Source: Balanoglossus misakiensis
Lineage: Eukaryota; Animalia; Hemichordata
Direction: 5' to 3'
Assembly: GCA_040954595.2 (NCBI GenBank)
Contig: CM082577.2
Coordinates: 16,313,903-16,377,902 of the forward strand
DNA: 64,000 nt
A program made the translations under genes and the position numbers. Numbering within the stretch: position 1 is the first letter of the stretch; each line of letters starts with the position of its first letter. Below, piece after piece: positions 23,986 to 57,551 of this stretch. The notes below the pieces were generated by a model that saw only the letters and a program-made list of their open reading frames with translations, searched no databases and was not told the origin of the DNA.

Positions 23986-25917
23986 GCTGAATTGGATCAG
24001 CAAGTCGCATCATACCGGGCAGCAACATTTGCCCAGAACACCAACCGCACTTATAAATCACAATGGCAGTGCTATCTCCGATTTTGCAACTCCATGGGCT
24101 ACCGAGCAATCCCAGTTAAGGGAGCATTTGTTTTTTACAGGGAGGGGGGGGGGGCGGTGGAAATCAGGGGGGGGGGTTTACTTTTACAAAGCAGTTTTTA
24201 GGGGGGGACAAATTTTATAATCAAGGGATTATTATATAGGGACTGAAAGGGGGACTTGAAAACTTTGACGGCTAAATATTTATTTTGAGTCCACAAAAAT
24301 GCAGTTTCGCGTCCTTTATTTTACAAAATTTTATAATGTGGGAGGGGGACACCCCCTCCCACACCCACCCCCTCCATTCATCAACACCTTTCAATCATTG
24401 ACTGGTTTATCTAGTGTCCCAGGTCAGGGGACTTGCCCCCCACCCCATGATAACTTTGAGCGGCGACGTTAATTTGCTTTTGCTGGGTTCATTAAAATGC
24501 AGCTTTGAGCTCTGTATTTTATAAAATTTTCTTACGTGGGAGGGGGACACCCCCTCCCAAACCCACCCCCTTCAATTCTCGGTTTACGATGTCTCCCAAC
24601 ACAGAATACAAATACTTAAAAAATAAAAACAATGTTCAGTAGACATGTACATGAACAGACATAGAGGGACAAAGAGGAGGATGAGCAGGAGGATGAAGAG
24701 GATGACTTGGACGAGGACAGTGAACCAGAAGATGAACATGTAGTGATAGGTGAACTAGGTGATTCAGCGGAAAGTGACTCAGAAAGTGATAGCGGCGACA
24801 TTGAAAATGAACTCTTTCATGTAACAAGATCAGGCAGACAATGCACTACTTGGAAATCAAGGAACTAGGTTTCATGGTTGATTATGTGGTATGTCGAACA
24901 TACACCAATATCTGACAAAGTTTGATAAGTTTAATCCGGTGGATAAACTTCTTTTTTTGGGGGGGGGGTCACATTTTAGAAAAGTAATTTCCAGGGGGGG
25001 GGGGGGTTGCCTTTTACATTTAGTCGGCGACTCAAATTCCACCGCCCCCCCCCCCTCCCTGTAAAAAACGAATGCTCCCTAACAACATTGTTTTAGGCAG
25101 GTATGTTGCCTTCCTTGCAACACGCTTAAAATTTTCTTCCATCAAGCAGTATCTAAATGTTCTGCGTATTTTTCACCTAGAAATGGGTTACAATAATCCG
25201 CTAAGTGAGAATTGGTTCCTAACTTCTCTCTTACTTGGTGTGAAGCGGTGCAAGGGAAGCACAGTGGAGCGCAAGTTGCCGATCACCCCCAGTTTGCTCT
25301 TGCAGATTAGGTCTACCCTTAATTTGGCACAGCTAGATGATGTACTGTTCTGGTCTGTTTGTACATCTGCCTTTTTTGGCTTGCTAAGATTGTCAAACCT
25401 GCTTGTTCCTTCTGCAACTCAGTTCGATGCTGGCAAGCATCTTTGTAGACAGGATATCATTTTTCGTCCTTGGGGTCTACTTCTCTCTATCAGATGGTCT
25501 AAGACCATTCAGTTTCAGCAACGTATTTTGCAGGTACCCCTTCCTTTTGTTCCGGGCCACCCCCTTTGCCCTACAACGGCACTCGTAAGATTTTGGCTTC
25601 TTTCCGCCAGGGCCCCAGCACAGGGTCCAGCCTTCTGTCTCCCTGGGGTCCCTAGTTGCCCATCCTTTACACAGTCCATGTTTCGTTCACGCTTGCGTAG
25701 CGTCTTGTCTTCACTTAGAGTATCTACAGCCACGTTTTCAGGCCATAGTTTTCGTCATGGTGGGGCAACTTGGGCTCTGCAATGTGGCATCCCAGGGGAA
25801 ATTATTAAAGTACTGGGAGACTGGCAGAGCTCTGCCTATCTGTCTTACGTCCAAGATGTTAGCTTAGAACAACGTTTATCTGCTATGTCAACTTTTACCC
25901 TACACCTACCACATTGA
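23986..25917 (+). pseudogene. DIRS/Ngaro-type tyrosine recombinase, interrupted by an insertion at 24120-25079
   Basis: Removing the insertion and one TAA restores the frame ...FAQNTNRTYKSQWQCYLRFC..GYRAIPV-NNIVLGRYVAFL.... The catalytic motifs FFGLLR, SKT, GHSFR.GGAT and GDW.S.AY..Y are present. Confidence 0.9.
24120..25079 (+). mobile_element. PIF/Harbinger-type non-autonomous element (960 bp)
   Basis: TAA TSD at 24117-24119 and 25080-25082. TIRs GGGAGCATT(T/C)GTTTTTTACAGGGAGGGGG...GCGGTGGAA at both ends. Confidence 0.9.
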
Positions 25918-27037: not shown

Positions 27038-28030
27038 CTGTACATAACACGCTTTTAATAGGCCTGGTACTATCAAACCACACGGTTTGTTTATGTTGTT
27101 TCGAGTTTCTTTCGGACACCGGACATTTCATTACTTCCCCTGCAAGTTCCAGTGCTTTAGTCAACCGCTAAATCAACATTTGGAAGACTAACAAGAGAAT
27201 CCTGTAAAACAACTTTCACTTCAATTGAAGACATATTTTCAAAAAAGGTGTTTCTAAAATTTTCAGACCATTTGTAACGCTCTGTTTTTCTACCAACATT
27301 TACATTTTCAACATTTACATCACAATGATAATTCCTGATCCCATTATATAATAGATGACACGACAAAGCCATATGGTCAGATTCGGTGCGAGGCAGTACG
27401 TTGAAATTCTTTACATTGTCAAATAACTTCGTGGACAGGATGACGTAATCAATAAGACTAGCACCGGCATAAGAAATACATGTGAAATGACCATCTTGGT
27501 CACCAGGTGTTCTCCCATTTACAATACGAATGCCCATTCGCTTGCATAAATCAATTAACATTCTACCTGCTGGAGTTATTACTGAATCTTTTGAACAACA
27601 GGGTGTACAAAATGTGTCAGGAATGTAACCCAAATTGTCTAACATCGGAACATGTGCAATTGCGTCATCAGTGATAAAATCGTCCAGGGGCCCCACTCTT
27701 GAGTTGAAATCGCCCAACAAAATAATGTGTTTATCAGAATTGTCTGAAGAAAAGTTAACTAGAAAGTCATCTAACATTTCAATTCTACGGATGGGGTTAT
27801 CTGGTCTAATGTAACAACAACCAATGAGCAAGTCTTTGTCAAAAGAAAATACATCTCTGTGGAATTCAAGAAAAACTCAATTTTCTAATGCACATTCAAC
27901 CCTCTTAACTTTATCAAAACACTTTTTGACGTAAACTGACACACCACCACTTGGTCTGCCTCTCCGAGAACATTCCAAGTTTATAGAGAAAAAATATTGT
28001 GATTCTGATGATATGGGCCTTGGCCTCTTA
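27038..28030 (-). mobile_element. LINE ORF2 APE endonuclease domain, frameshifted
   Basis: RGRPSGGVSVYVK, CYIRP, ILLGDFNSR, GRMLIDLC..NGR, FTC, SLIDY and SDH motifs (ORFs 27877-28116 and 27157-27831). Confidence 0.9.
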
Positions 28031-29211: not shown

Positions 29212-29791
29212 TAATAACACATGATAGCGAGGGCAATATCACGATTTGAAGCCTACACGAGGGATGGTGATCTCTGACCATAATATTGATGATGCCCGAG
29301 CCGCAGGCGAGGGTTTCATCAATATTGTGGTCAGAGATCACCAGCCCGGGGGTAGGCTTCAAATCTTGATGTTTCCCGAGCATCGTGTGTAATTAATTTT
29401 ATTACGCCGAACATTTGAACGTACATACACTGCAGCATAGAAGAACGTAGGGTTGCGTCCATGTCGTACATTGCTGAGAATGTAAAATGTCTCGATCTCC
29501 CAAGAACTATACCTACTTCGAACTCAGATAATTTTGAGGATACTGCGCTGTTGGTTTCGATTTCGGTGTATTTACTGCCTGTTTGCAGTAAAATATCGTC
29601 AAGTTGAACAGGTGTTAAGCCTGTCGCTTTGAAGCCATAGATGCGGGAGTTGGCTGATCGGCGAGGAAGCCATTGAACAACAGTTTGTCAAGCGCAGAAG
29701 TCGTGCACAGAACACCAAAACAACCAAGCGGGCAATATCAACATGCTTTATCACTCTTGCCATGTTTTATCACTTTTTGCTCTATGTCACG
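29212..29791. mobile_element. Left part of a palindrome-bearing (Crypton-like) element that received the Polinton-type insertion; resumes at 43058-43111
   Basis: Hairpin at ~29212-29395 with core cgagccgcaggcgag. Short IR ttttattacgcc (29397-29408) pairs with ggtgtaataaaa (43100-43111) beyond the insertion. Confidence 0.55.
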
Positions 29792-29825
29792 AGTAGTATA
29801 GGTTGGAGCCGTAGCACTCGGATTT

Positions 29826-30335
29826 GGGGAGGAGGATCAGGAGGAGCTGAGGAGGAGCTGAGGAGGAAGAGGAGGAGCTGAGGAGGAAGAGGAGGAGCTG
29901 AGGAGGAAGAGGAGGAGCTGAGGAGGAAGAGGAGGAGCTGAGGAGGAAGAGGAGGAGCTGAGGAGGAAGAGGAGGAGCGGAGGAGCTGAGGAGGAAGAGG
30001 AGGAGCTGAGGAGGAAGAGGAGGAGCTGAGGAGGAGCTGAGGAGGAAGAGGAGGAGCTGAGGAGGAAGAGGAGGAGCTGAGGAGGAGCTGAGGAGGAAGA
30101 GGAGGAGCTGAGGAGGAAGTGGAGGTGATGTTGGGAGGAGGCAGAGGAGGCAGTGGAGGTGATGTTGGGAGGAGGTGATGAGAGGCGAAGGAGGCCTATC
30201 ACCCATGAGGTAGACAACCCTAAATGTTGGGAGGAGGCAGAGGAGGCGATGAGAGGCGGAGGTGTATCACCCCCTAAGGTAAGGAACCCTAAATGTTGGG
30301 AGGAGGCGGAGGCGGAGGAGGCAGAGGAGGCGATG
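29826..30335 (+). repeat. Subterminal purine-rich array (GAGGAGCTGAGGAGGAA)n grading into TGTTGGGAGGAGGC units, left arm
   Basis: Directly visible, and mirrored with different copy number at ~42355-43017. Confidence 0.9.
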
Positions 30336-30364
30336 AGTGGTAGCCCTTTCCCTATTTGAGACTG

Positions 30365-30372
30365 TATAAAAG
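30365..30372 (+). promoter_or_regulatory. TATA box upstream of the ANKRD9-like ORF (mirrored at ~42316-42323)
   Basis: TATAAAAG lies between the GAG array and the ORF. AATAAA at 31530-31535 follows the stop. Confidence 0.5.
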
Positions 30373-30459
30373 GCTAGCCCTGCATGACCATCGTTCTCTT
30401 GGGCGTATTGTGGATATGGTCAATGCGCATTTTTAACGAACATCGTCGAGATCAGAGGA

Positions 30460-31377
30460 TTGCTTTCACGATTCGACCAATTGTCTTTTTATAACTTGCT
30501 AGTCACCGCGATCAGAAAACACAAGCCACCAAAAAGGATAGAGAGAGTTCGGAAACGCGTTGTGTTCGACTGGGAGGAGAAGAGCGACGCCAGGTTTTTC
30601 ACGCCGGCCGATGCGCTGGCACTGGCCGTTGAGTGCAACCATATCGACTACGTGGAATACCTTCTGGAATATCATCTGGCAGAGGCGCTGGATGTATCAA
30701 AACGATGTTGCTCGCATCTCATTCTAGCTGTGAGGTGGGACAGACACCAGATTATGGAGAAGATTCTCTTTTACGCGAGAAAGAAGTTCGACCACTGCAG
30801 GAGTGCCATCGACGAGAAACTGCAGCGTGAGGCGAATACTGCACAGAGCCGAGAGAATTATAGGGCGGAGGCCCCTCCGACATATGATTACAATGGCGAC
30901 TGCTATATCAACTGCAAAGGGTGTCGTTCGTTGGGATTTTCAAGAACGGCCGTCCATGTCGCTTGTGAGTTGGCCCACGTCGAATGCCTGAGAGCCCTGC
31001 TCAAGTACGGAGCGAACCCGGCAACCATGGATCTGGTGGGGAAAACGCCGCTGGAATACTGTCTGTTTCAAACGGGGCCGTCGTCGTCCGATTTGACCTC
31101 TCGGCCGGAACGACTAGCGGAGTGCGTCGAGCTTTTGTTGAGAACACTGCAAAATATTGATGTTTCAATCGTTGAACGGTTGGAAGCTTTAAATACTGGG
31201 GGAGTGAAAGACGGGTTCCTCCAAAACATCGACATATCAAATTCTCCCTGTCTTCTAAAGCACCTTTGCCGCTTCACAATAAGACAATCCATAGGTCTGA
31301 ACGACAGGTTACCTCACGGGATCGGTCAACTACCGTTACCGCTAACTCTAAAACGGTATTTGGCGTTAGATATGTGA
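30460..31377 (+). CDS. ANKRD9: ANKRD9-like ankyrin-repeat / SOCS-box protein (CRL5 substrate adaptor family), left-arm copy
   Basis: FDWEE...FFTPADAL..A...H..Y..YLL, RCC.SHL.LAVR, GC...TAVHVACELA..ECL..LL..GA.P...D..G.TPLE match ANKRD9. C-terminal SOCS box: PCLLKHLCRFTIR...LPLPLTLKRYL. The start is uncertain: the frame is open from 30388 but the first ATG is at 30754. Confidence 0.85.
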   Translation: MLSRFDQLSFYNLLVTAIRKHKPPKRIERVRKRVVFDWEEKSDARFFTPADALALAVECNHIDYVEYLLEYHLAEALDVSKRCCSHLILAVRWDRHQIMEKILFYARKKFDHCRSAIDEKLQREANTAQSRENYRAEAPPTYDYNGDCYINCKGCRSLGFSRTAVHVACELAHVECLRALLKYGANPATMDLVGKTPLEYCLFQTGPSSSDLTSRPERLAECVELLLRTLQNIDVSIVERLEALNTGGVKDGFLQNIDISNSPCLLKHLCRFTIRQSIGLNDRLPHGIGQLPLPLTLKRYLALDM

Positions 31378-31682
31378 ATTTGAATCTGTTTTCAAACTGC
31401 TCCATGCAGTACCTTTGCCAATGTTCATGTTGTACATTATTCAATGTTCAAGTTTGACCAAAGTTATCTGTTTTATAATCTTGTGAATTGTGATATGTTT
31501 GTTTGTTTGTTTGTTTTTTTTTTTTAGAAAATAAAACCAACTGTTCATGGTTGTTGTTTTTTTAATGGAAACTGATCTGGCGTTTTGCTTGTATGTGTGT
31601 GAGTGAATGCATAAGAGTCATGTCATTTAGCGACGAATCAAGTTAAATTTATAGATTTATTGGTTTAAACACTAGAATTTGG

Positions 31683-31793
31683 TGGATCTGGTGGGGAAAA
31701 CGCCGCTGGAATACTGTCTGTTTCAAACGGGGCCGCCGTCGTCCGATTTGACCTCTCGGCCGAAAATGACTAGCGGAGTGCGTCGAGCTTTTG
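31683..31793 (+). repeat. ~110-bp duplicate of ANKRD9-like coding sequence 31028-31138 downstream of the gene (mirrored in the right arm)
   Basis: tggatctggtggggaaaacgccg...gcgtcgagcttttgt is repeated with a few substitutions. Confidence 0.85.
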
Positions 31794-32122
31794 TGTTATG
31801 TTATAATTTATCATTTTAATTATTATTATGATATTGTATGTGATTTCTGAGTAGTTTTGATAAATATATCCAAGTAAATGGAGAGTACTATAGTGTTACT
31901 AATCTTACTCAGTTCGTGGGGTACAATAATGGAAATGTGTTAAAGAGAGAGGGTTCCTTACCTAAGAGGGTGATACACCTACTACATCCTGAAATGCGCC
32001 CTCTACCGACCGAAGTAGCGTTTCATTCGTCCACAACGTACAATCCATACCGTCTGCGTTCGGAACTATGGACTTTTCCGCGAGTGAGCAGTGGGAAACA
32101 ATAATTAATTTAGAACGACAAC

Positions 32123-33247
32123 ATGGAAGACAAGACCAAGAAGATAACCAGGTAAGTAACACATTGTAAATTATTTAGATCAATGCCCAGTAATTTTTAA
32201 TGACACATTATAATTATCCCACCCAAAGCTTTTTTCGCCCGTGGGTAACACATACTATCTGTACTATATATATATATATATATTTTTTTTTTATGGTCCT
32301 CTCTTATTATCATTACATAAGAGTCAACACATCATTTTTGAACAATATTGTACTCCAAGAAATGGACTGCCCTGTGGATGTTATGTCAGTATATTTCATG
32401 TAATTCGTAAGCTATATTTTCTCTCCGTTAAAATGGGCGCGCATTGAATATATATGAGCTTATCGTCTGCGCGTAGCACCTACATCCCACTGTACATGTA
32501 GGCCTATGTACTAATTTTGCGCAGCGTGACTATCAGCGTCACACGCCCTCTCCCCATGATTGTACTGGCGAATAGTGTGGTAACGAGGATAAGCCAAACA
32601 AGGAAGTGTATGCTATCTACACTGAGTTTTAACCAGCGTGCGAAGTTTTATTTTATTTTATTTTTATCGCAACGAACGCAGTGGGCTCACACTCACTGTG
32701 AGTGTGAGTGTATTCTATGTGTACCCAACTGGCTGTGCATTCGTCGCCGCGAATTGCAGTGTACGATTTCCTATCATTTTCACTCATCGATTTTACATAA
32801 ATTCAACTCCCTTTATCACAACAAGTTTGATGAAATACATTTTCATTGAAATATTAATCTCAAAAATTGTCCTGTTGCGATCGTAGAAGATGAGCAGTGA
32901 CGCCCGCGAAATGTTACGGTGATTATGTGACCTGGCCGTCTAGGGGCTTGCAAGCAAATTGCTACATTGTTGCATTGTAATCGCTGGGGTAGCTGTTCTC
33001 CCCAGTCACACGCCACTAATACAGCACACGCGTGTTCAGGCATTGTTATACCATTAGCAATACCTCCACGCCAGCAGTTAGAGCTAATGACAGAATGATG
33101 TGCTATTTCAACAGGTGTTATCGCTCAACGAGGAAAGTGATTTGGGCGCGCAGCATGAAGAACCCAGTGCTCGCACGTCCGGCGAGAGTTTACCACAGTA
33201 AGTTTTTGCTCGATTTTATCGTAATCGGGGGTATCCTGTGTATTTGA

Positions 33248-33300
<53 letters not shown>

Positions 33301-34307
33301 AACAAACAAACGTGGGTATACGCTTAGTCAGCAACTATTTTTTTTTTTTTCTTTTTTTCTTTTTTTTTTTTTTTTTTTTTTCTTTTTAATCTTTGCTAGA
33401 GCAGATATACCATCACAAAGAGTGAACGAGGAAGTGTCAGAGACACAGCCTTTACCGAATCCAAAGAGCGTTATAATAAAACCGTCGGTCGGTCGCTGGT
33501 GATGACTTATTTTTTTTTTTTCAGGATGTAAAGACCTAATCAATTGTCTATTCACGTTGTAATATATTTTTCATCCTCGTAGAATCGACACCACACCAAA
33601 CAATAACACATCGGGTACACAAGAGGATGCATCGTCCTCTCCGAAGCAAATCAGGTAGGTTTAAATAGATTGTGTTTCTATTCACCTTAGGCAGGGTACT
33701 CGTTCTAACATGTATGGTTGTCTATCTGACTGCAAGGTCGTTTGTAAATTTATTCTTGCAATTTTTTTTCTCTCCCAGACTTCCGTCTACACACCTTGCT
33801 GTCACCGAACACCAGCCATCACCAGATTATATACAGGTCCTTCGTGAGACCACTAATCGCCCGGATGTCTATGGTGAGGAGAATGATGAAGGCCGATCAA
33901 CGTGCCCCCACTGTCCCCGCACATTTTCCAGACCAGGTGATTTGTGTCGTCACATCAACACCGTCCATGGGGAAAACCGCCTGTCGTGTGCCAGTTGTAG
34001 TAAGACGTTTACACGCAAAGACAACTTGGCAAGACACCAAAAGAGAGTGCATGACAACAAGAAAACAGGTACCGGTGGTGATGAAAATGACCAGTTTCAG
34101 TGTCCCTGTTGTGACCTTACCTTCACCCGAAAGGACAACATGGCACGGCATTTAAAGGAAATACATCACCGCCTGGATTCCCAATATAAATGCTCAATAT
34201 GTGACATGGTATTTAAAAGAAAAGCACATCATGCCAGTCATTTGAAAATACATAAGAAGCTGTCTTGTACCTGGAGGTATTTAAGGGTGTCGAAAATACA
34301 AGAGTGA
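32123..34307 (+). CDS. Spliced C2H2 zinc-finger protein (4 fingers), predicted 237 aa; exons 32123-32151, 33400-33483, 33583-33654, 33779-34307
   Basis: Fingers CPHC..HINTVH, CASC..HQKRVH, CPCC..HLKEIH and CSIC..HLKIH lie in ORF 33672-34307. The ATG exon ends AG|gtaagt. All three GT-AG introns are phase 2 and keep the frame open; the exon-2 donor gtcggt is weak. Confidence 0.75.
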
Positions 34308-34828
34308 GGGGCCAAAGTGCGGGACACGCACAGTGCTATAAATGGCACTCTGCGGGAATTATCCGACGCGCAGGGAACGGACCTTGCTCTGTTCCCGGCG
34401 TTCCACGGCCTCCACCACTGGAGGCCGTGCAGTGTAACCGGGAACACACAGACCAGTACGCAGATCTAGGAACGGACCGTTTGATTGTTCGGCAGAGCAG
34501 AACAACACGTAACCTAATGTGTACTCAGACAGAGCCAGGCCTGTATGGCTTGTGAACGACGTTGCATAAACGTGTGTCATCCTTGGGTTTACCACTTACG
34601 AATGCAACATCAGGACAGTAGAAAATGTCGATTGTGGGTGGTTGATCGCCCGATCATTTATTATTTTCAACGCCCGAATGTCGTCGGTCGTCGTCAAAAA
34701 CACGATCGACCTCCTCGAAATGCAACATGAAAGTAGAAAATGTCGGTCAAAAACACGATAGACAACCATACATGTTAGAACGAGTACCCCGCCTAAGGTG
34801 AATAGAAACACAATCTATTTAAACCTAC

Positions 34829-36193
34829 CTGATTTGCTTCGGAGAGGACGATGCATCCTCTTGTGTACCCGATGTGTTATTGTTTGGTGTGGTGTCGATT
34901 CTACGAGGATGAAAAATATATTACAACGTGAATAGACAATTGATTAGGTCTTTACATCCTGAAAAAAAAAAAAATAAGTCATCACCAGCGACCGACCGAC
35001 GGTTTTATTATAACGCTCTTTGGATTCGGTAAAGGCTGTGTCTCTGACACTTCCTCGTTCACTCTTTGTGATGGTATATCTGCTCTAGCAAAGATTAAAA
35101 AGAAAAAAAAAGAAAAAAAAGAAAAAAAAAAAATAGTTGCTGACTAAGCGTATACCCACGTTTGTTTGTTGTTGTTTGTTTGTTTGTTTGTTTTTTTTTT
35201 TTTTTGTGTGTGTGTGTGTGTGTGTGTGTTTTCATCAAATACACAGGATACCCCCGATTACGATAAAATCGAGCAAAAACTTACTGTGGTAAACTCTCGC
35301 CGGATGTGCGAGCACTGGGTTCTTCATGCTGCGCGCCCAAATCACTTTCCTCGTTGAGCGATAACACCTGTTGAAATAGCACATCATTCTGTCATTAGCT
35401 CTAACTGCTGGCGTGGAGGTATTGCTAATGGTATAACAATGCCTGAACACGCGTGTGCTGTATTAGTGGCGTGTGACTGGGGAGAACAGCTACCCCAGCG
35501 ATTACAATGCAACAATGTAGCAATTTGCTTGCAAGCCCCTAGACGGCCAGGTCACATAATCACCGTAACATTTCGCGGGCGTCACTGCTCATCTTCTACG
35601 ATCGCAACAGGACAATTTTTGAGATTAATATTTCAATGAAAATGTATTTCATCAAACTTGTTGTGATAAAGGGAGTTGAATTTATGTAAAATCGATGAGT
35701 GAAAATGATAGGAAATCGTACACTGCAATTCGCGGCGACGAATGCACAGCCAGTTGGGTACACATAGAATACACTCACACTCACAGTGAGTGTGAGCCCA
35801 CTGCGTTCGTTGCGATAAAAATAAAATAAAATAAAACTTCGCACGCTGGTTAAAACTCAGTGTAGATAGCATACACTTCCTTGTTTGGCTTATCCTCGTT
35901 ACCACACTATTCGCCAGTACAATCATGGGGAGAGGGCGTGTGACGCTGATAGTCACGCTGCGCAAAATTAGTACATAGGCCTACATGTACAGTGGGATGT
36001 ACGTGCTACGCGCAGACGATAAGCTCATATATATTCAATGCGCGCCCATTTTAACGGAGAGAAAATATAGCTTACGAATTACATGAAATATACTGACATA
36101 ACATCCACAGGGCAGTCCATTTCTTGGAGTACAATATTGTTCAAAAATGATGTGTTGACTCTTATGTAATGATAATAAGAGAGGACCATAAAA

Positions 36194-36224
<31 letters not shown>

Positions 36225-36368
36225 TAGTACAGATAGTATGTGTTACCCACGGGTGAAAAAAGCTTTGGGTGGGATAATTATAATGTGTCATTAAAAATTA
36301 CTGGGCATTGATCTAAATAATTTACAATGTGTTACTTACCTGGTTATCTTCTTGGTCTTGTCTTCCAT
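34829..36368 (-). other. Mirror copy of zinc-finger gene exons 1-3 (36368-36340, 35084-35001, 34900-34829), without the finger exon
   Basis: Reverse complement of the left-arm exons with the splice sites retained. Confidence 0.6.
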
Positions 36369-38120
36369 GTTGTCGTTCTAAATTAATTATTGTTTCCCAC
36401 TGCTCACTCGCGGAAAAGTCCATAGTTCCGAACGCAGACGGTATGGATTGTACGTTGTGGACGAATGAAACGCTACTTCGGTCGCACTGCATGAAAACCC
36501 TATAATACAGACAAATTCACACAAATCAAGTTGCCAGTATTTTAGGCTAATACACGCTAATTCTTGTGAGTCCACATGAATATAGGCTTGCTGAATACAA
36601 GCAATGGATTTTTGTCTGTATTCATCAGTATAAGCACTATTCTAAATCCATGCATAATACTGAAAAATACAGATTGTACAAGTCTTTAATACATTCTGTA
36701 TTAAGAATAGATGGACGATGTATTCACAAAGACCGGTTGGAAATGGTACTGCAAAATACAATCTGTATTCGCAGAGATTTGAGTTCTATTTGCATATCAT
36801 TACTAGAATGACCCGACCAGTGTGAAGGTCAACCTGATTCAGTCCACAGTCCCTCTTTGGTAGATCTAAAATAGTCCATTGATCCTTGTGATCGAAACAA
36901 GCAACATACACAATACAATTTAATCCATCTATAATATCAGTAGGAAAAACCATGGATGCAATCTTTCCTTATACCTCCATGGAACAACGGAGTAAACTTA
37001 GTTCTTGCCGAAGTGTTAAGACGATTTTAATAACCGTAAATTCAAAGCTTGCAAGTTACGTATATATGAAGGCTTTATACTGCCAGCACTTAATTGCGTC
37101 AATTTGGCCATGCACATAAAAAACCTTGTGCAGGAAAAGACTATACGCTGTAGCCTATTCGCCGGTCTGAAGCCGGCCGGCGACTGTAGCTGCTCAATCA
37201 TTGTTATTTCTTTAGCGCCTGTGCCTACAAGATTGCGAGGTAAAATTAGCGTGTCCGGCTTTGCCTAGCCTGCGCGGCTTCCCCACTGCGGAGGACCAGC
37301 AGCCTAGTCACGCGGCGAGACGGACAGACCCTGTGATCTGATATAGAAAAAATGGGCAGTCCGGCGCACCACGTTACAAATCTCGAGCGCATGTGCCGTG
37401 GCCGGACTTTCTCGCCATTCTACATCTAACAATCCAAATATGATCGTTATATCTCAGAAATGTGCTGACTCTGAGCCATACGCTACAATAACCTGTGCGT
37501 TCAACAACAGTTACTAGAAAAGACGGTTGGGAAACTATCTGGCTGTCCATTGTAAGATGCTCGACTTGGTAAACACTGAGAGTACTTTTCTAGTTAACAC
37601 CTCCTTCACACCTTCCGAACAATATAGAGTTTCCCAACAGTCTTTTCTAGTAACGCAGTGTGAACCATGCATGGAGGTACGGAACGAAACGGAACACAAC
37701 ACTGTTCAACAACACTGGTGATTCATTTTACTTTCTGTAAAAATGTTTGGCCTGGTGACACTTTCTCTGGGGAGCACGTGCAGGGCAACAAGAGAGAATT
37801 GATCTCGACAGTGGGGAATTCGATCGCCACTATAAGCTCTACCAAAACGAAGTTTCAGGACGTCTGTACCATTGTTACAATTAAGTGCCCCAGGCGTCTA
37901 TATGAGTTATCTGGTGGGCCAATAAACTACCGATCAAGGTGAACAAAAGACAGTAATGTTTGTGAAAATGACACGACTGACCGCCAGTGAAATGATTGAC
38001 AGTCTATACCGTGTGCTGAAGATGCGGTTGACACCCACAGTCAGCGTTAATCAAGGCCGGATCGGCCACACATTTGTCAGACATCGTGCAGGTGCTCCCC
38101 GCACCTGGCCCGGTCATGTA

Positions 38121-38212
38121 TAGCCCTGCGTACGGGTCTGTGTGTTACCGGCGTTACCATAGTGGTAGAGGCCGTGTAACGCCGGGAACACACAGACCTG
38201 TACGCATAGCTA
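38121..38212. mobile_element. Hairpin MITE of the TAGCCCTGCGTAC family (degenerate)
   Basis: Same TIR as 46052-46454. Another decayed copy lies at ~34388-34468. Confidence 0.65.
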
Positions 38213-39484
38213 TGCCGATGACTGCCCTTAGATCCACGAAAGACTGCCTGATCGAGATATGCCCTGGAGACAGCAGGAGCAAAAAAGGGAGAAAAGGCCA
38301 CAATGCGCTAATTCAAGCCAAATCCTAACAGATCAAACTTAATTTAAGCGCAATCACCCTAAAAATAATTTGACATCCATTTTGAGCTATTGGGGGCACT
38401 CCTGTGGGGGGGGGGGGGTCGCCTGATCTCAGCTTGCGTAGGTTTAAGAACATACCATTCAGTAAAAGGTGTGACACACTATATACAGACTACAAAGCTG
38501 CCAGCATTTTGCAAAGCAATACAAGTTTCGGCGTTTTTAAAAGAGTTACAAATTGATTATTTAGAGTAGCATAGGGGGACCTGTACAGCGCCACCATAGG
38601 GTATATATCTCGAATTTGAAAGGTTAAAGTTCAGCAGTGCAGCCGAGCTGATTGAACTACAGTGACAACAGTGCGCAGCAGAGAGCAAGAACAGAGATCC
38701 ACTCCAGTCATATTTTTTATAGAGTTTATAGTACAGAAGATATGAGCTATCGATCAAGATCGCGAGTTGCTAGTCGATTAACAGCTGACCAAGTTGCACA
38801 TGACATTGTGCGGTCAACTCCAATTCGTCCGTCCAGATGTCCATGCAGCAGGCAATTACTATGTTTTAAATCGTTGACAATAATCTGCACATTCATAAAT
38901 CAGTCTGTTTGAACTGTAGCAGTAACTTCGAATCCAATGGCCGAAAGTGTGTTCTGTAGGCAATAAAAGCGTACTGCCTTTGCTTTTAGACATATGATGA
39001 ACATCACTTAGTCATTTGTGTGTTTTTGAAGGGAGTTGTTTGGTTAGCGGATGCATGATGGAAAATTGCCATGATTATGTTCAACTAACAAATGTAATGA
39101 GAGTCACTCATTCTTCCATGCTACCCCAAAATACTCATTGTTCTGCAGGAAATGACACATGTGCTTGATAAACTAACTTTAACACATACACAAGGCATAA
39201 ACAAACTGCACACAATAAGCTTGCACACTTCATCACTATTGTTTGTGACATCTCTATTGTTCATGACACCTGGAGATAAGCATGTCTTTGTCATGTTTTG
39301 CATTGTAGTGAAGAGAACAATATAAAACTGGAGAATTGAAGCCTGTGTAAAGGTTGTCATTCAAGAGGCATCTTTCAGCAGGCAGGTTCACCATAATACG
39401 AAATGCCATTCAAAGAAAAATTTGACTTGATATGTTAGATTTTTAAAAAAATATTAATACAGTTCATTTTTTTTTTATTTTCAG

Positions 39485-39777
39485 ACATTAAAAAGGAGAG
39501 AAAGGGTCGTCAATGCAGATGAGAAAGAATTCTGGGCAAGGGTAAAGGCGAAACTAATGTCGGACGAGGAAGTTGGTGAATCAGAGGACATAGTTTTAGT
39601 CAAGTCGCCGGCCTGGAGAGCTGCACCCCTTAATGAACTGATCAAACACTTGACAGGAGACTAGAGGAAAAGAGAATTTTAGGCAGACTAGTCAAAAAAA
39701 GGCAACGCTCAGCAACTCCATCATCCCGGTCCCGTCCAATCAATGTTTATTCAGAAAACTATGTTGAACCTCAGTAA
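39485..39777 (+). pseudogene. C14orf93-like exon inside the CACTG element, one frameshift
   Basis: After a T-rich acceptor: ...FWARVKAKLMSDEEVGESEDIVLVKSPAWRAAPLNELIKH/DRRL, matching the MSDEE...P-x-WR-x3-L-x2-L...LD motif. Confidence 0.55.
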
Positions 39778-41310
39778 CATTTAAATTGACTAAAATTCCC
39801 TTTTCCTCTAGTCTCCTGCCGAAGCTTGAAATTGTCACCATTATTTCCAATCTCAGGATATCTTTTTATTCTTTATCTTACATTTCCTGCCATTTTTATA
39901 ATATTGCAATATGTAAAAACAGAAAAAAATTTGTGGAGTTAATCTCTTATTTAAGTTTGATTTTAACAGCTATCTTTTTTATTGTAATTTATTTATGAAT
40001 AATAATAAAAAGTGAATAATGAAAAATTTACCCTCTTCATTATGTTTTATTGTTGGCATGAATGTACTAGTAGCATGAGAGGATGTGTGGATGGGAGATG
40101 TCTTGTCTTGTGTCACAGCTTTGGTCAGTCTGTATTCCCATATGACCCATGATATATTTGAAGACGTTTATACAATACTGATAAAATTCAACCAGTTAAT
40201 TTTTCTGCCTGTAGCCTGACATCAGGATTGATTGTGCTGAAAGATTTACTGGAATGCTATCAATTACATGGGGTAATTCTGCAAATAAACAGTATGCCCT
40301 TTATGAAGAAAATCGCAGGATAAAGTTAATGAAGAAGCAAAGATCAAAAGTCATTAATTTGATGTAAAATCAGTCATGAATCAATATGGAACCCATTACC
40401 TGCAATGAAAAAATCACACGAATTCATGTCTGTATTTTTCCTAAAGCACAGATGAATACAGACAAGTCCACATCTTTATTCTTTGAAAAATACTGATGAA
40501 TTCTTGCAGTGTATTAGCTGGTATACAGAATGGTGCTTATACTTGTCTATCCATTATGAATATATCTGTATTCACGGTGAATACTTTCTATATTAACAAT
40601 GGACTAGACTGTATTCAACTAAAATACAGGCGATTGTCCATGCTTATATTGTAAGTATTATTAGGTTTTCATGCAGTGTCGGTAGAGGGCGCATTTCAGG
40701 ATGTAGTAGGTGTATCACCCCCTTAGGTAAGGAACCCTCTCTCTTTAACACATTTCCATTATTGTACCCCACGAACTGAGTAAGATTAGTAACACTATAG
40801 TACTCTCCATTTACTTGGATATATTTATCAAAACTACTCAGAAATCACATACAATATCATAATAATAATTAAAATGATAAATTATAACATAACACAAAAG
40901 CTCGACGCACTCCGCTAGTCATTTTCGGCCGAGAGGTCAAATCGGACGACGGCGGCCCCGTTTGAAACAGACAGTATTCCAGCGGCGTTTTCCCCACCAG
41001 ATCCACCAAATTCTAGTGTTTAAACCAATAAATCTATAAATTTAACTTGATTCGTCGCTAAATGACATGACTCTTATGCATTCACTCACACACATACAAG
41101 CAAAACGCCAGATCAGTTTCCATTAAAAAAACAACAACCATGAACAGTTGGTTTTATTTTCTAAAAAAAACAAACAAACAAACAAACAAACATATCACAA
41201 TTCACAAGATTATAAAACAGATAACTTTGGTCAAACTTGAACATTGAATAATGTACAACATGAACATTGGCAAAGGTACTGCATGGAGCAGTTTGAAAAC
41301 AGATTCAAAT

Positions 41311-42228
41311 TCACATATCTAACGCCAAATACCGTTTTAGAGTTAGCGGTAACGGTAGTTGACCGATCCCGTGAGGTAACCTGTCGTTCAGACCTATGGA
41401 TTGTCTTATTGTGAAGCGGCAAAGGTGCTTTAGAAGACAGGGAGAATTTGATATGTCGATGTTTTGGAGGAACCCGTCTTTCACTCCCCCAGTATTTAAA
41501 GCTTCCAACCGTTCAACGATTGAAACATCAATATTTTGCAGTGTTCTCAACAAAAGCTCGACGCACTCCGCTAGTCGTTCCGGCCGAGAGGTCAAATCGG
41601 ACGACGACGGCCCCGTTTGAAACAGACAGTATTCCAGCGGCGTTTTCCCCACCAGATCCATGGTTGCCGGGTTCGCTCCGTACTTGAGCAGGGCTCTCAG
41701 GCATTCGACGTGGGCCAACTCACAAGCGACATGGACGGCCGTTCTTGAAAATCCCAACGAACGACACCCTTTGCAGTTGATATAGCAGTCGCCATTGTAA
41801 TCATATGTCGGAGGGGCCTCCGCCCTATAATTCTCTCGGCTCTGTGCAGTATTCGCCTCACGCTGCAGTTTCTCGTCGATGGCACTCCTGCAGTGGTCGA
41901 ACTTCTTTCTCGCGTAAAAGAGAATCTTCTCCATAATCTGGTGTCTGTCCCACCTCACAGCTAGAATGAGATGCGAGCAACATCGTTTTGATACATCCAG
42001 CGCCTCTGCCAGATGATATTCCAGAAGGTATTCCACGTAGTCGATATGGTTGCACTCAACGGCCAGTGCCAGCGCATCGGCCGGCGTGAAAAACCTGGCG
42101 TCGCTCTTCTCCTCCCAGTCGAACACAACGCGTTTCCGAACTCTCTCTATCCTTTTTGGTGGCTTGTGTTTTCTGATCGCGGTGACTAGCAAGTTATAAA
42201 AAGACAATTGGTCGAATCGTGAAAGCAA
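41311..42228 (-). CDS. ANKRD9: ANKRD9-like ankyrin-repeat / SOCS-box protein, right-arm copy
   Basis: The translation is identical to 30460-31377. Confidence 0.85.
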   Translation of the reverse strand: MLSRFDQLSFYNLLVTAIRKHKPPKRIERVRKRVVFDWEEKSDARFFTPADALALAVECNHIDYVEYLLEYHLAEALDVSKRCCSHLILAVRWDRHQIMEKILFYARKKFDHCRSAIDEKLQREANTAQSRENYRAEAPPTYDYNGDCYINCKGCRSLGFSRTAVHVACELAHVECLRALLKYGANPATMDLVGKTPLEYCLFQTGPSSSDLTSRPERLAECVELLLRTLQNIDVSIVERLEALNTGGVKDGFLQNIDISNSPCLLKHLCRFTIRQSIGLNDRLPHGIGQLPLPLTLKRYLALDM

Positions 42229-42354
42229 TCCTCTGATCTCGACGATGTTCGTTAAAAATGCGCATTGACCATATCCACAATACGCCCAAGAGAACGATGG
42301 TCATGCAGGGCTAGCCTTTTATACAGTCTCAAATAGGGAAAGGGCTACCACTCA

Positions 42355-43017
42355 TCGCCTCCTCTGCCTCCTCCGCCTCCGCCTCCTCCCAACATTTAGG
42401 GTTCCTTACCTTAGGGGGTGATACACCTCCGCCTCTCATCGCCTCCTCTGCCTCCTCCCAACATTTAGGGTTGTCTACCTCATGGGTGATAGGCCTCCTT
42501 CGCCTCTCATCACCTCCTCCCAACATCACCTCCACTGCCTCCTCTGCCTCCTCCCAACATCACCTCCACTGCCTCCTCTGCCTCCTCCCAACATCACCTC
42601 CACTTCCTCCTCAGCTCCTCCTCAGCTCCTCCTCTTCCTCCTCAGCTCCTCCTCAGCTCCTCAGCTCCTCCTCTTCCTCCTCTTCCTCCTCAGCTCCTCC
42701 TCAGCTCCTCCTCAGCTCCTCCTCAGCTCCTCCTCTTCCTCCTCAGCTCCTCCTCAGCTCCTCCTCAGCTCCTCCTCTTCCTCCTCAGCTCCTCCTCTTC
42801 CTCCTCAGCTCCTCAGCTCCTCCTCTTCCTCCTCAGCTCCTCCTCAGCTCCTCAGCTCCTCCTCTTCCTCCTCAGCTCCTCCTCAACTCCTCCTCTTCCT
42901 CCTCAGCTCCTCCTCTTCCTCCTCTTCCTCCTCAGCTCCTCCTCAGCTCCTCAGCTCCTCCTCTTCCTCCTCAGCTCCTCCTCAGCTCCTCCTCAGCTCC
43001 TCCTGATCCTCCTCCCC
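42355..43017 (-). repeat. Subterminal purine-rich array, right arm (longer than the left)
   Basis: (CTCCTCAG/CTCCTCTT)n array, with one extra CCAACATCACCTCCACT unit relative to the left arm. Confidence 0.9.
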
Positions 43018-43691
43018 AAATCCGAGTGCTACGGCTCCAACCTATACTACTGTCACGTGAGCGCGTCTCAGCCAATCACGAATACGACATAATACGTAAG
43101 GTGTAATAAAATATCTTAATGTGTATCTGTACGTCATATATCTCATCAAGGTGAACGTGTGAACTATAACATCCAACACATTTTCTTAAGAATTTCATCT
43201 CGAGAGGTGATCGACATTTTTTATTCAAAGCAGGAGCCTACATACAAACAATGGAAATTGTGTTTTACAGGATAATCGTTCAGATACTGAACAATAGGAA
43301 GACGCAGTGGCGTTCAATACCTGGACACTTGCACTACAGATGTGCATTGTCCGGCTTACAGCACACCAAAATATCTGCTGTAAAGCCCGGCCAACCACGA
43401 ACAACATTCCTGCAGTCAAATTACGATTGGAACGATCAACGAGTCGATCAATGGTCGAGAGTGGCCGCGCGCAGAGCATTTGCATAGAGCTTCACCAGGT
43501 GCTTCACAAGTTCACACGTCACTTTATTCGTGTCACTGCATGCACGGTGATATTTGCATATTTCTTGTGTTAGGGGTCCGTGTGTCAGTGTAGTCCATTT
43601 CTTAAAAAGCATATACCATTTCGTTTTGCTACTTTCCCTTACTTAGAACAATCACAAATTATTGTACACAGTTACTGAGTACAAAACATGA

Positions 43692-45135
43692 CTACACTGC
43701 AAAAGTATACGTCAGATACAAAGAAATTGCGATCACACTCAGGAGGCTGGGCACCGCAGATGGTCGACTGGCATCTGACACAGACTGTAATATCTGGCAC
43801 TCACGTGACTCGGGGTCTCCAGCACACAGGATGTAACGAACGTCGCTGTGGAGACAAGTTAAAAAGATCTGAAGATTCTTTACGGCGCGGCATGGCAAAA
43901 TTCACCACACGCAAAGGCAATTCGTTTCTTTCCTGAATACCCCGGAACTTTTAGACTGAAATGTGCCCTTGACTCGCTCCACTACATGTATGTCTGTCAA
44001 ATTCAAATGTGTTTGAAGACATTTCATTTGTTTCAGATATACAGACAAACAACTTTATTTTACTCACTCGGGGTCGTCTATACATGTGTAACGTATTCCC
44101 CGTTCGTCCAGTAAATTCTGCAACCTTAATATTGATTTCTCGCCACAGCTTTCTCTATAAAAGAAACATACCAAACGTGCCATCTGCAAGATGTCTTTGA
44201 GAAAGGAGCTTGGATGGGCGGCCATCTTGGATTTTTCTGTTGCTAACGCTGCCTTTGTCCAAGAGTAACGACAGTTTGTGCACGTGACCCTGGAAAACTC
44301 AATACAAGAACAGTAACAGCCTCAAGAAAACATGCGCGAATTTGCGCATGCTCAAATAACCAGGGCGACATTATACATGTACTCACATCTTGGCACGATT
44401 GAGGGTGTGGATGACCAATATAGAGAGTGACGTCACTCTGTCTGGATCCAGCTTGGGGAGTTCGTATGCAGCGAAATAACTGTAGTACAGAAGAAGTTGA
44501 CATACACCTTAACAGTCCGTTGTTGGGGTTGCATATGAAAAATTATGGGATGTCATACACTAAATACATGTATGTGCCATCTTTACATTAAACGCTGTAA
44601 GTTCACACAATACTTGTATTGAGAGCAGGACCAAACAACTTCCGTCAACAAACACAGACACTAATTGTGTCACGTGATATAGAAGTCATAACCAATTCCA
44701 AATACTAGAACACGACCATTATTGCTGACTAGTAAATTCCTATCTAAAACTTGAATTCAACTATAACAAGAACAGTGACTGCACACTTGTAGCCTGTGTT
44801 GCTATAAATCTATAAATACTGGGCAGTTCACCTTGCCTACTTTGTATACATTAAAGACTGGTGAAAGTATGACATATACCTGTTCATTCGGAATGCGTCG
44901 TGGCCTTCTCTTGAACCGTTTAGCATAATTGTGGCGACGCCACTTGCTTGAAGGGCAAACTGTGATTTAAAATATATGTTGTTAAATTTCCATCAGGAGT
45001 AACCACTGTCAAGGTCAATACCATCACAATTGCATCATCATAAATTGTCTTTTATCATCATCATCAGCATCAGCATCACCACCACCACCAACCCCCCCCC
45101 CCACCAAACGCCACCACCACCAGTTCCACCAACAC

Positions 45136-45201
<66 letters not shown>

Positions 45202-47326
45202 AATATTTATGACATACACGTAAACGCATTATATACAAAGTAATGCAAATCATAATGATAATTACATCAGCTGAAAGACTTCCCCAGAATGCATCAGTGG
45301 CTTGTTGACAACAATTTGTTCGACATGACTCATAATTGATGCCGGGCTCTTGAACTTGGCCGCACCATATCAGACGATTCGCCACATACCCAGGTAATGT
45401 ATCTTCGAGTGTTTGGTATTGACGGTTCAACGATGAATACGCATGCGCGATGTGATTGGTTCCAGACCAAAATAGTGTCTGCAATAACAATGATAGTTTT
45501 CATTCGAAATCCTGTGAGCTCACTGGATCACATGGCAATATATGATGTGTATAAGTTTACTTTACGTTTTGACTATGGGCGTTAATTTTGTTAAATGTAC
45601 AGAATTGCCCGTTTTATATCTCGGTTGACGTCACACCTCAATGCGGGTTTAATTTTGACTACTAAAGAAATATGTTTGATTAGCAAGATGACAAAAAAAC
45701 CACATATATCAAACCAAAAGCGTCACATCCCTTGGACTTTTGTGATAAGGGGGGGGGGGCACTGTTGCGCATGCGTATACGAACCCCGTTTACTTGAACG
45801 GACTGTAAAGCTGCTTCTCTGAAAGGTTTGTAGAGTTCGCTGGTGACGTCACATGGATCACGATATACAAATCCCTGCTGAAACAGCTCCCACAACTCTG
45901 TGCAGTTACTGACATTACAGAAATAGAAAGTAAACAAAGAAACAAACATAAGCCAGATCAGACAATGAGAAAATCGTCATTTCATATAAAGTGCATTCAA
46001 ACAGATTCACAGACTGCGGTGGCGCAAAGTGATATAAGCATAGTGGCTGTGTAACCCTGCGTACAGGTCTGTGTGTTCCCGGCGTTACACGGCCTCCACC
46101 ACAGCCCTGCAAGGCGCCATAGAAAAAACTGATGCTTCTGCGGTCCGGATCCGGACCGCAGCTTTTTCGGAAATTCGAATTTATCGAGGGAAAAATCATT
46201 TCCCTGTCTACTTCTGCCTCCTAACCGACTCCAAATATGATGCGTTTAACTTGTCCTAACGTCCGAACCACTCGCGTTTGATTTATTTTTGTGTGTTTAC
46301 ATGTTGAGATCGCCATAATTAAATATAAGGCTTACAGCGAGTTTATCTCCATGGTTATGGGTAAACATAACAGTTTTTTTTCTATGGCGCCTTGCAGGGC
46401 TGTGGGTGGAGGCCGTGTAACGCCGGGAACAACACAGACCTGTACGCAGGGCTAGGTGGCTGTGCAATGGGGAAGTCAGAGTGAATCAGATTCCAAAGGT
46501 TATCCAAAGTAGGCTAGAGTGACAATGTAGTGTTTGGTCCAGTGAATGGATTTAGGTCACGCACCATACTTGTCAGTGCCAGTGAATTCTTTTAGTGCAA
46601 ACTTATGACCTGATCGTTATTAAATTGCAACCATATGGCGTATATTACTAGTACTATTCTACCCATGTGTATAGATCAACAAAACAAAACACTGTGTGGT
46701 TTGGTTGAGGTTTGATTGTAGTTTAGGTCGAACATTATTGACACGGCTGTTCATAAGAATAGGCTGGTGACTCGAAAGTGAAACTTTGCGGAACTGTGAA
46801 ATATAACCGTGTTGGAGAAAAGGCTCAAATCAAAATGGCAGAAGAGTTCAAGTCGGTTCAGATCCTCCACATTATTTGATTGATTGTTCGATCGGTTAAT
46901 TGATTGATCGATGAATCGATCGAGTGATTTGAGTGAATGAGTGAGTGGGTGCGTTAAGATCCATTGCTTTCAAAATAAAATAATCATTATATTAATTTCA
47001 ATGATATATTCTTTAAGGCTAACATTCAACAGAGTTCAGCCCGGGCTGTAACTCGCAAGGGAAAAAAGAGTTTACCTGGTATCACTGTCGGATAAGTGGT
47101 ATTCCCAGCACCGCCCCAAGAAAATTTCTTTCAGATGCGGCGTTGTTCCACTGGCTGGACAGTATTCGTCTCCGAGTCGTCTAAAGTTGCTTCTCATAGA
47201 CCGCGAGAAACGACCAGACTCATGAGACTGGTACCCTAGCAGGTGAGCCCATGAAGGGGCAAGTGAGAGGGAAAGGACGCCCAGAGTGAAAAACACGACG
47301 CTGCAGAAGTTTCCATTCGGCTTCAT
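43692..47326 (-). CDS. ADP-ribosyl cyclase / cADPR hydrolase (CD38/BST1 family) gene 1, 333 aa; exons 47326-47076, 45908-45785, 45478-45266, 44959-44880, 44479-44387, 44154-44068, 43845-43692
   Basis: Signal peptide; GTTPHLKEIFLGRC; TLFWSGT; TLEDTL; FWGSLS; MLNGS; catalytic E in YFAAYELP; ESCG..SI; C-terminal C-x8-C and a hydrophobic GPI-like tail. All introns are GT-AG and phase-consistent. Confidence 0.93.
45139..45201. repeat. (CAT)n microsatellite in a cyclase gene 1 intron
   Basis: Directly visible. Confidence 0.95.
46052..46454. mobile_element. MITE with ~80-bp TIRs and 9-10-bp TSD (AcademH-like ends TAR...CTA)
   Basis: TA(A/G)CCCTGCGTACAGGTCTGTGT... TIRs, with flanks (a/g)gtggctgtg on both sides. 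Confidence 0.8.
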
Positions 47327-55935: not shown

Positions 55936-57551
55936 TTAGGGCACAAGCCAAGCAGGCTTGTGCCCTATTGGTATTACTGGGGTTTTTCATCTTTTTTTTT
56001 TTCTTGTGTAGTTTTTTTGCTCAGGTAGATCTTGAAAACGGCTGAACCTACAAATCTCAAACTTGGCACAATGGTGCAGGCCTATGAGAGCTGGTGCAGT
56101 ATCCCTGTGAATGTTTAATTAGTCATGTGGCTTGATGACCATATATGGGGAAAATTTTTAAAATGGGCCTAATTTGCATATGAATGGAGATATCGAAATT
56201 CTTTTAGCAACTTTTGTGGACCATGTGATCAGTGTCCTACATGCCAAATATCAAGGCCGTGGGCCAAGTCTATTTTGAGAAGAAGACTTGTAAATATTAG
56301 TAGTTTTTCATATTTTTGGACCCAGCCATGGGCCTATACTTTCTATAGTTAAGCTATGACGCCATGTACACGTCTGTGCAATGGTCCTGTACAGTGACTG
56401 CCTACTGGCCCGTGAGCAGAATGGGACCACATTAAAAGGCAAAATTTCGGGCTCACCTGTAACACCTGCTAAACTCATTAATTATGTGCATACCTAATTC
56501 CGGGCTAACTAATAGGGCTAGAGGTTTCGTTCTTTTTGGTCATGGACCAGTATGGGGTTAAAAAAATTTGCCCAAATTCTGGGTGACCTCAGGTGACCTT
56601 TGACCTACTTTCCTATATCTCCGCATCCAGAGCAGTTACAGACTTGGCGTTTGGAGGGTTGGGACTAAAATAGAAAAGCCAAAATTGGGGGTCACCTGTG
56701 ACACCTGCTTATCTCATTAATTATGTGCATACCTAATTCCAGTCTAACCGATAGGGCTAGAGGTTTTGTTCTTGTGGGACATGGACCAGTATGAGGTTAA
56801 AAAAATTTGCCCAAATTTTGGGTGACCTCAGGTGACCTTTGACCTACTGTCCTATATCTCCGCATCAATAGCAGGTACAGACTTGGCGTTTGGAGGGTTG
56901 GGACTATAATTGAAAAGCCAAATTTGGGGGTCACCTGTGACACCTGCTTATCTCATTAATTATGTGCATACCTAATTCCAGGCTAACCAATAGGGTTAGA
57001 GGTTTGATTTTTGTTGAACATGGACCAGTATAGGCTCAAAATTTCTTGCCCAAATTTTGCATGACCTCAGGTGACCTTTGACCTAATTTACCATATCTTG
57101 GCAACCAGAGCAGGCAAAGACTTGGCGTTTGGAGGGTTGGGACTAAAATTGAAAAGCCAAAATTTGGGGTCACCAGTGACACCTGCATATCTCATTAATT
57201 ATGTGCATACCTAATTCCAGGCTAACCAATAGGGCTAGAGGTTTTGTTCTTGTGGGACATGGATCAGTATGGGGTCAAAAATTTTGCCCAAATTTTGGGT
57301 GACCTCAGGTGACCTTTGACCTACTTTGCTATATCTTGGCATCCAGAACAGGTACAGAATTTGTGTTTGGATGGATCGAACTATTAATGGAGTCTTACAC
57401 TTTACATCATTAATTATGTGCATATCTAATTTCAGGCAAACCAATAGGGCTAGAGGTCAGGTTTCTTTTTGCCCAATTTTTGGGTGACCACATATGACCT
57501 TTGACCTTCGGCTTAAGCTTGTGCCCGTCATCGCTGCTTGCAGCTATATTT
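55936..57551 (+). mobile_element. Helentron-associated (HINE/DINE-like) element with a central 239-bp tandem array
   Basis: 5' agggcacaagc...gcttgtgccct hairpin, 3' subTIR gcttgtgccc, terminal stem-loop gctgcttgcagc followed by tatattt. Repeat units start near 56452, 56691, 56930 and 57169. Confidence 0.7.

Follow-up and report, generated by a model that had tools for sequence, protein, structure and literature searches.

Origin of a core-less palindromic element

The question raised by this locus is how a mobile element with the ends of a Maverick (Polinton) came to consist almost entirely of two mirror-image arms. The locus lies in a 64,000-nt window, the whole stretch of Balanoglossus misakiensis contig CM082577.2 that was analysed (position 1 is its first letter, and all coordinates below are window positions). 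The window contains a palindromic mobile element of ~13 kb, including a nested transposon. It derives from a multi-copy family of Maverick type, is young and palindromic, and lacks the core genes. We favour, at a probability of roughly 0.48, an origin in which the left end of such a family was copied back together with its accessory region and the product was integrated by a helper. A fold-back origin overall, by copy-back or by fold-back in place, is rather probable.

Ends, arms and authenticity of the palindrome

The element begins with AGTAGT and finishes with ACTACT, and over the 39 nt compared the terminus at 29792 is the exact reverse complement of that at 43051. It is flanked by two exact copies of GTCACG, a 6-bp target-site duplication (TSD) expected by chance about once in 4,096. 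Without the nested insertion, the core element is 9,063 bp long, and arms of 3,935 and 4,098 bp make up 88.6% of it and enclose a centre of 1,030 bp. Self-BLAST pairs 29820-32010 with 42890-40678 at 97.6% and 32007-33726 with 36484-34757 at 97.5%; outside microsatellites and minisatellites the arms differ at only 5 of 3,386 aligned positions (0.15%). A preliminary description, made from the sequence alone, had reported the same ends, the same TSD and near-identical arms of 3,935 and ~4,100 bp, all of which are borne out here. Its estimate that almost 90% of the element is terminal repeat holds for the share of the arms; the term itself is overstated, the arms being probably the duplicated left end and accessory region of the parent rather than natural terminal inverted repeats (TIRs).

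The palindrome in the assembly is confirmed as real. That it is a fold-back made during sequencing or assembly is very improbable: its flanks differ and carry the TSD, a 4.2-kb insertion, present in one arm only, has a separate TSD, minisatellite lengths are unequal between the arms, and each arm has private substitutions. The one observation on the side of an artefact is that the window's junction is not among the listed contig pieces (16 of 266) of sample S1. S1 is one sequenced sample with three runs (X1, X2 and X3), two of which contain 83% and 75% of the sampled words; it is possibly, but not necessarily, the source of the window, and its contigs drop rare variants.

Maverick-type ends without core genes

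The published signature of Mavericks is 5'-(AGT)2//(ACT)2-3' or (AG)3//(CT)3 ends with a perfect 6-bp TSD, and their accessory regions flank the core modules (PMC8097293). The element has the end motif, the perfect 6-bp TSD and TIRs, in agreement with its earlier assignment to Maverick/Polinton-type ends.

The core genes were sought by a Pfam scan of 65 stop-to-stop frames of at least 55 aa, covering 30330-34800 and the nested element; of the right arm, which mirrors the left, the scan took in the ankyrin open reading frame (ORF). No frame (0/65) matches the Pfam families of pPolB, RVE integrase, packaging ATPase, protease, or major or minor capsid protein, consistent with the absence of viral core genes stated in the preliminary description. 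Only two of the 65 frames pass the curated Pfam cut-offs, one with ankyrin repeats and a SOCS box and the other with a C2H2 zinc finger, and the element contains no unexplained ORF long enough for a packaging ATPase, protease or capsid gene. Because the defining genes are absent, the element is not filed as an autonomous Maverick/Polinton. Matches below the cut-offs to Relaxase_M, Post_transc_reg and DUF4616 were disregarded as weak. Relatives of the ankyrin or zinc-finger proteins were found neither in the viral contigs nor in the metagenome contigs searched, and the terminus pattern of the element was not found in the metagenome contigs.

The absence of any attached Polinton gene would also fit a fold-back derivative of some other transposon class with 6-bp TSDs that had captured host genes. 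A spliced gene and a host MITE (a miniature transposable element with inverted repeats) are likewise atypical of Mavericks, since intact vertebrate Mavericks have intronless core ORFs (PMC8097293). However, the element combines exact (AGT)2//(ACT)2 ends with a perfect 6-bp TSD, as in the published signature of Mavericks, and we regard another transposon class as improbable.

Fold-back junction

The window's fold-back junction, where the centre meets the right arm, has a 3-bp microhomology (GAT). The corresponding arm boundary at 33726 falls in the last predicted intron of a C2H2 zinc-finger gene. The exons of this gene have canonical splice sites and join into one open frame, its splicing being predicted, while the copy in the right arm has the 5' exons only and no finger exon. 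None of 20 candidate homologues of the zinc-finger protein reached E<=1e-8, and the Atlas gave only generic C2H2 clusters for it, with low recognition. As expected of copy-back, a strand-switch junction inside parental sequence, microhomology at that junction and two copies of one end occur together.

A second opposite-strand joint, 34330/34720, is contained in one X1 contig with a depth of 27.7, the shorter side of which covers 56 letters. If this joint is taken as a fold-back, with its orientation assumed, TGC is the microhomology right at the joint, and the spacer measures 390 bp. Both turns then begin within ~40 bp of each other in the same repeat array, and two 3-bp matches would arise by chance about once in 4,096 if the fold-back geometry is right. 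A second palindrome at this position is possible and, with one contig in one run, is treated as a lead only.

Family copies in sample S1

Contigs aligned to 30340-34800 number 119 for X1, 134 for X2 and 0 for X3, and the S1 results are those among the 16 of 266 pieces, 40 of 67 difference rows and 12 of 59 loose ends listed. Seven X1 arm contigs have a mean depth of 279 and are 5.7-10.6 times deeper than the shallowest X1 contigs (depths 26, 28 and 49), a ratio uncalibrated against a single-copy flank. Judged by this contig depth, the family is multi-copy.

Family sequence runs through both breakpoints. Specifically, position 33726 is not a family boundary, because contigs pass from the arm into the centre at arm depth (33512-33826 at 267 in X1; 33396-33898 at 1,101 in X2); the centre itself has a depth of 227-283 in X1. 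For the same reason the centre is ordinary family sequence and is not unique outside the window. The unique centre of 1,030 bp in the preliminary description is therefore correct in size and unique within the window, but S1 family contigs contain it. Past 34,759, S1 contigs run into more direct-repeat units, with joint depths of 204 and 242 in X1 and 316 in X2; one such joint, 34759>34670, has depth 204 in X1 and 316 in X2. The copy-back-like origin proposed in the preliminary description is thus supported by the intron-sited junction, the 3-bp microhomology and the family copies that continue through both breakpoints.

Both arms share at least five substitutions relative to the S1 majority (30754, 30888, 32937, 33545 and one unlisted within 30462-30491), as well as a 58-bp segment, 31904-31961, that is missing from that majority. 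Such sharing is expected under copy-back, because one arm is copied from the other. Among the private arm substitutions, S1 agrees with the right arm at 32480 and 33693 and with the left arm at 32237 and 33177.

A parent with natural, gene-bearing TIRs of at least 5 kb, containing both the ankyrin and the zinc-finger gene, would offer another explanation: its core and ~1 kb of its right TIR would have been lost by microhomology-mediated deletion. Homogenisation of the TIRs would also account for the variants shared by the arms, and in butterfly polintons the TIRs, ~2 kb long, contain duplicated genes (bioRxiv 10.1101/2025.02.07.637071). In X1, a zinc-finger paralogue ~90% identical has relative depths of 0.53, 0.53 and 0.54 against the main sequence, as a 1:2 ratio between an interior gene and a TIR gene would predict, and the depth at 30340-30491 does not double (281 versus 302), so no short-TIR boundary is seen inward of 30340. 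Nevertheless, the breakpoints of both junctions lie 0.4-1 kb apart in arm-depth sequence, a geometry that fits a local U-turn rather than a deletion of >10 kb, and the TIRs of intact vertebrate Mavericks are 46-1,447 bp long (PMC8097293). We consider a long-TIR parent unlikely.

Candidate TIR boundaries were rejected on separate grounds. A natural TIR end at 30453 was dismissed as the X1 depth is not doubled before that position. The X2 loose ends at 30453, 30509, 31685 and 33894 lie at GATC sites and were read as Hi-C-type ligation joints.

Ankyrin–SOCS-box gene

The ankyrin gene carried by both arms is ANKRD9-like. Its protein has three matches among 2,670 candidates, namely an ANKRD9-like protein of Ptychodera flava (56-57%), one of Glandiceps talaboti (44%) and a weak one; the top Atlas cluster is ANKRD9 (0.98, with recognition below the strong threshold). 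Because the flanking host G-protein-coupled receptor (GPCR) is 51-52% identical to its P. flava relatives (2 matches among 4,732 candidates, both P. flava), the ankyrin gene appears to be about as diverged from its P. flava relative as a host gene is. The GPCR matches by themselves also point to a hemichordate as the likely host.

Both relatives show a Met at 30481, the point at which homology begins, but an ATG is missing there from either window arm. The first in-frame ATG, on which the start of the 207-aa ORF relies, is at 30754 and is absent from the S1 majority contigs. The cargo in the preliminary description, two ANKRD9-like ORFs and a zinc-finger gene, is thus upheld by Pfam as regards domains, but the 207-aa ORFs represent only the C-terminal 70% of the ANKRD9-like protein. 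Judging by the sequence, both window copies look crippled or dependent on a near-cognate start. The suggestion that genes for host manipulation were selectively retained is unsupported, as the ankyrin gene lacks an ATG at the homologous start and the right zinc-finger copy lacks the finger exon.

S1 also contains a shallower paralogue of the ankyrin 5' region (depth 49 in X1 and 182 in X2), with 6 differences in 87 bp and, before 30405, a sequence that departs from that of the element. This paralogue may be the host gene from which the element's copy came, with the join lying a short way downstream of the TATA-like box at 30365. A ~30-bp motif of the subterminal 69-bp repeat (30255-30295) recurs inverted at ~31945-31985, bracketing the ankyrin gene, and could be a site bound by protein or a vestige of gene capture. 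Judging by the cargo, a ubiquitin-ligase adaptor of the host may have been captured; both the ankyrin–SOCS-box and the zinc-finger genes are probably host-derived passengers from the parent's accessory region.

The missing start codons bear on a second route to a fold-back. A full-length copy may have integrated, suffered an interior break that was repaired by fold-back synthesis and been rejoined at its right TIR with the TSD kept, leaving a one-off that was never mobile. The junction evidence is the same as for copy-back, the TSD is equally accounted for, and two ankyrin copies without a start ATG are what a decaying integrated copy might show. Such repair in place requires two coordinated events rather than one, and the second junction from the same ~40-bp hot spot, although a single contig, suggests a recurring process. 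We think this history quite unlikely.

Proposed mechanism

In the copy-back reading, the parent would replicate as a free linear molecule by protein-primed strand displacement. The polymerase would stall in the direct-repeat array at 34596-34759, ~5 kb from the left end, switch strands at a 3-bp match on the opposite strand ~1 kb upstream, and recopy the left end. The product, with two left ends, would keep both origins and both integrase ends, and therefore a full-length helper could replicate and integrate it. The helper's integrase would then insert the palindrome and make the 6-bp TSD. After insertion, the arms would have drifted by 0.15% and the right arm would have received a CACTG transposon. 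What we infer here is that the parent replicated free, that a helper acted and that it was the palindrome that was integrated. It is plausible that the 9-kb palindrome is a propagating satellite, as the preliminary description proposed.

Several points weigh against copy-back. Maverick membership is drawn from the ends and the TSD, and a parent with core genes was found in none of the viral or metagenome contigs searched. Most S1 copies extend beyond 34,759 with no fold-back (joints at 204-242 versus ~280 for the arms). The half-depth zinc-finger paralogue (~0.53) fits a long-TIR parent equally well, and uniform depth cannot separate short-TIR from long-TIR parents. The second junction is a single contig from one run and is taken as a fold-back on an assumed orientation. 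Finally, the TSD is compatible with integration of the parent rather than of the palindrome.

Nested transposon and other features of the window

The coordinates of the element and its features are collected in Table 1.

Table 1. Features of the palindromic element and of one flanking host gene (window positions)
Feature	Position	Strand	Remarks
Left TSD copy	29786..29791		GTCACG
Palindromic mobile element	29792..43051		mirror-image; ~13 kb including nested transposon
Left arm	29792..33726	+	3,935 bp; begins AGTAGT; self-BLAST and repeat finder
Subterminal GAG-rich minisatellite	29830..30125	+	8/11/20-bp units; right-arm counterpart 42597-43015 longer
Two 69-bp subterminal repeats	30169..30312	+	
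TATA-like box (putative function)	30365..30372	+	upstream of ankyrin gene
ANKRD9-like ankyrin and SOCS-box gene, left copy	30481..31377	+	intronless; Pfam
Duplicate of ankyrin coding piece 31028-31138	31683..31794	+	112 bp; 96%; mirrored in right arm
58-bp segment	31904..31961		in both window arms; skipped by majority S1 contigs
C2H2 zinc-finger gene (predicted, spliced)	32123..34307	+	exons 32123-32151, 33583-33654, 33779-34307
Centre (spacer)	33727..34756		1,030 bp; finger exon, MITE-like hairpin (~34361-34480), direct-repeat units 34596-34759
Fold-back junction	34756..34759		GAT (34757-34759) fits centre repeat unit and reverse complement of 33724-33726
Right arm, inner part	34757..36484	-	carries truncated zinc-finger gene copy
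Nested non-autonomous CACTG…CAGTG transposon	36485..40678		4,194 bp; 15-bp TIRs; 3-bp TSD TCG
Right arm, outer part	40682..43051	-	finishes in ACTACT
ANKRD9-like gene, second copy	41311..42207	-	protein sequence identical to left copy
Right TSD copy	43052..43057		GTCACG
Rhodopsin-family GPCR gene	58512-59618	-	intronless; 51-52% to Ptychodera flava proteins

The nested CACTG element of the preliminary description is corroborated by its 15-bp termini and TCG duplication, and it sits in the right arm only. Non-autonomous CACTA/CMC elements are defined by CACT(A/G) termini, short TIRs and a 2-3-bp TSD. The nested element, which we take to be of this type, has such termini, TIRs and TSD, and no transposase was matched in the Pfam scan of its stop-to-stop frames. 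A high-copy host family of MITE-like hairpins, with a summed depth of >10,000 in S1 contigs, is represented in the centre (34361-34480), in the nested transposon (38120-38212) and twice in the flank (46052-46128 and 46376-46454). The hairpin in the centre is common to S1 copies (X1 contig 34307-34484, depth 283).

The insertion site (29780-29791, 43052-43080) can be read as a CACGTG E-box with a CCAAT-like motif after it, and the element may have landed in promoter-like sequence. Elsewhere in the window, 4073-9039 is an exact (100%) 2,483-bp tandem duplication with fragments of a DDE_3 (Tc1/mariner-like) transposase, either very recent or a duplication in the assembly. A TatD DNase fragment lies at 15015-15407 (+) and a LINE endonuclease fragment at 27157-27876 (-). 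A 297-aa frame at 25024-25917 (+) has no Pfam match at 1e-3; by eye it resembles what we presume to be a DIRS/Ngaro-type tyrosine recombinase. An ADP-ribosyl cyclase (CD38-like) exon is present at 45038-45499 (-), where the open frame enters a CAT microsatellite read as poly-Asp. A tandem array of 239-bp units, 83-94% alike, occupies 56422-57507.

Implications

The current view is that Mavericks replicate in the manner of adenoviruses, as linear, protein-primed molecules, but to our knowledge there are hardly any observations of this in animals. Such replication would be expected to give off palindromes that have two left ends, a U-turn at a microhomology and a fresh TSD; with elements of this kind, both the model and integration in trans can therefore be tested at the level of sequence. 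A palindrome with 4-kb arms at 0.15% divergence is also a likely source of instability in the host genome.

A broader scenario is conceivable, although we hold it doubtful. Mavericks in this genome may repeatedly spawn palindromes resembling defective-interfering (DI) genomes at a hot spot for U-turns that lies ~5 kb in from the left end, and these may insert and multiply as a satellite lineage. That lineage would double the dose of a Cullin-5 adaptor captured recently from the host, an ANKRD9-like protein whose vertebrate counterpart regulates IMPDH2. If true, such palindromes would form a germline fossil record of polintovirus DI genomes, invisible to gene-based surveys. They would escape surveys that depend on hallmark genes and long loops; one coral survey, for instance, used TIRs of 100-2,500 bp and a loop set at 15 kb.

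Comparison with known systems

In the literature searched, most subscription papers being outside its coverage, we found neither core-less palindromic Mavericks nor ANKRD9-like cargo in a Maverick described, and the available parts of PMC11161782, PMC6431247 and PMC11296320 describe no palindromic derivatives. The element resembles Mavericks/Polintons (polintoviruses, adintoviruses; PMC8097293, PMC8502044) in its end motifs, 6-bp TSD, inverted ends and accessory ORFs near the ends. It differs from them in lacking pPolB, integrase, ATPase, protease and capsid genes, in having arms of 3.9-4.1 kb, far beyond the TIR lengths given above for intact vertebrate elements, and in a cargo that includes a predicted spliced gene. 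Polintons of pierid butterflies likewise have long inverted ends that duplicate protein-coding genes (bioRxiv 10.1101/2025.02.07.637071). However, theirs are full-length and duplicate hexon and adenain, whereas the arms described here have twice the length of theirs, carry a host-like gene in duplicate and leave only 1 kb between them.

With respect to cargo, vertebrate ANKRD9 has been described as a Cullin-RING adaptor that ubiquitinates IMPDH2 (PMC12925506). Like ANKRD9 and the ASB-type Cullin-RING substrate receptors, the protein of the element combines ankyrin repeats with a SOCS box; unlike theirs, the window genes ride a mobile element and lack an ATG at the homologous start.

The closest functional parallels come from protein-primed replicons. 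The palindromic mini-replicons of phi29 and the hairpin plasmids of pGKL are helper-dependent derivatives of such replicons, and the layout of adenovirus 12 SYREC is reportedly palindromic. SYREC is a recombinant of Ad12 and host DNA that depends on a helper (PMC2396429). By analogy with these derivatives, the element would have one end duplicated, its origins kept and its enzymes supplied in trans. The known derivatives are products of culture or of reactions in vitro and do not integrate by their own ends, whereas the element described here is a germline insertion with a TSD.

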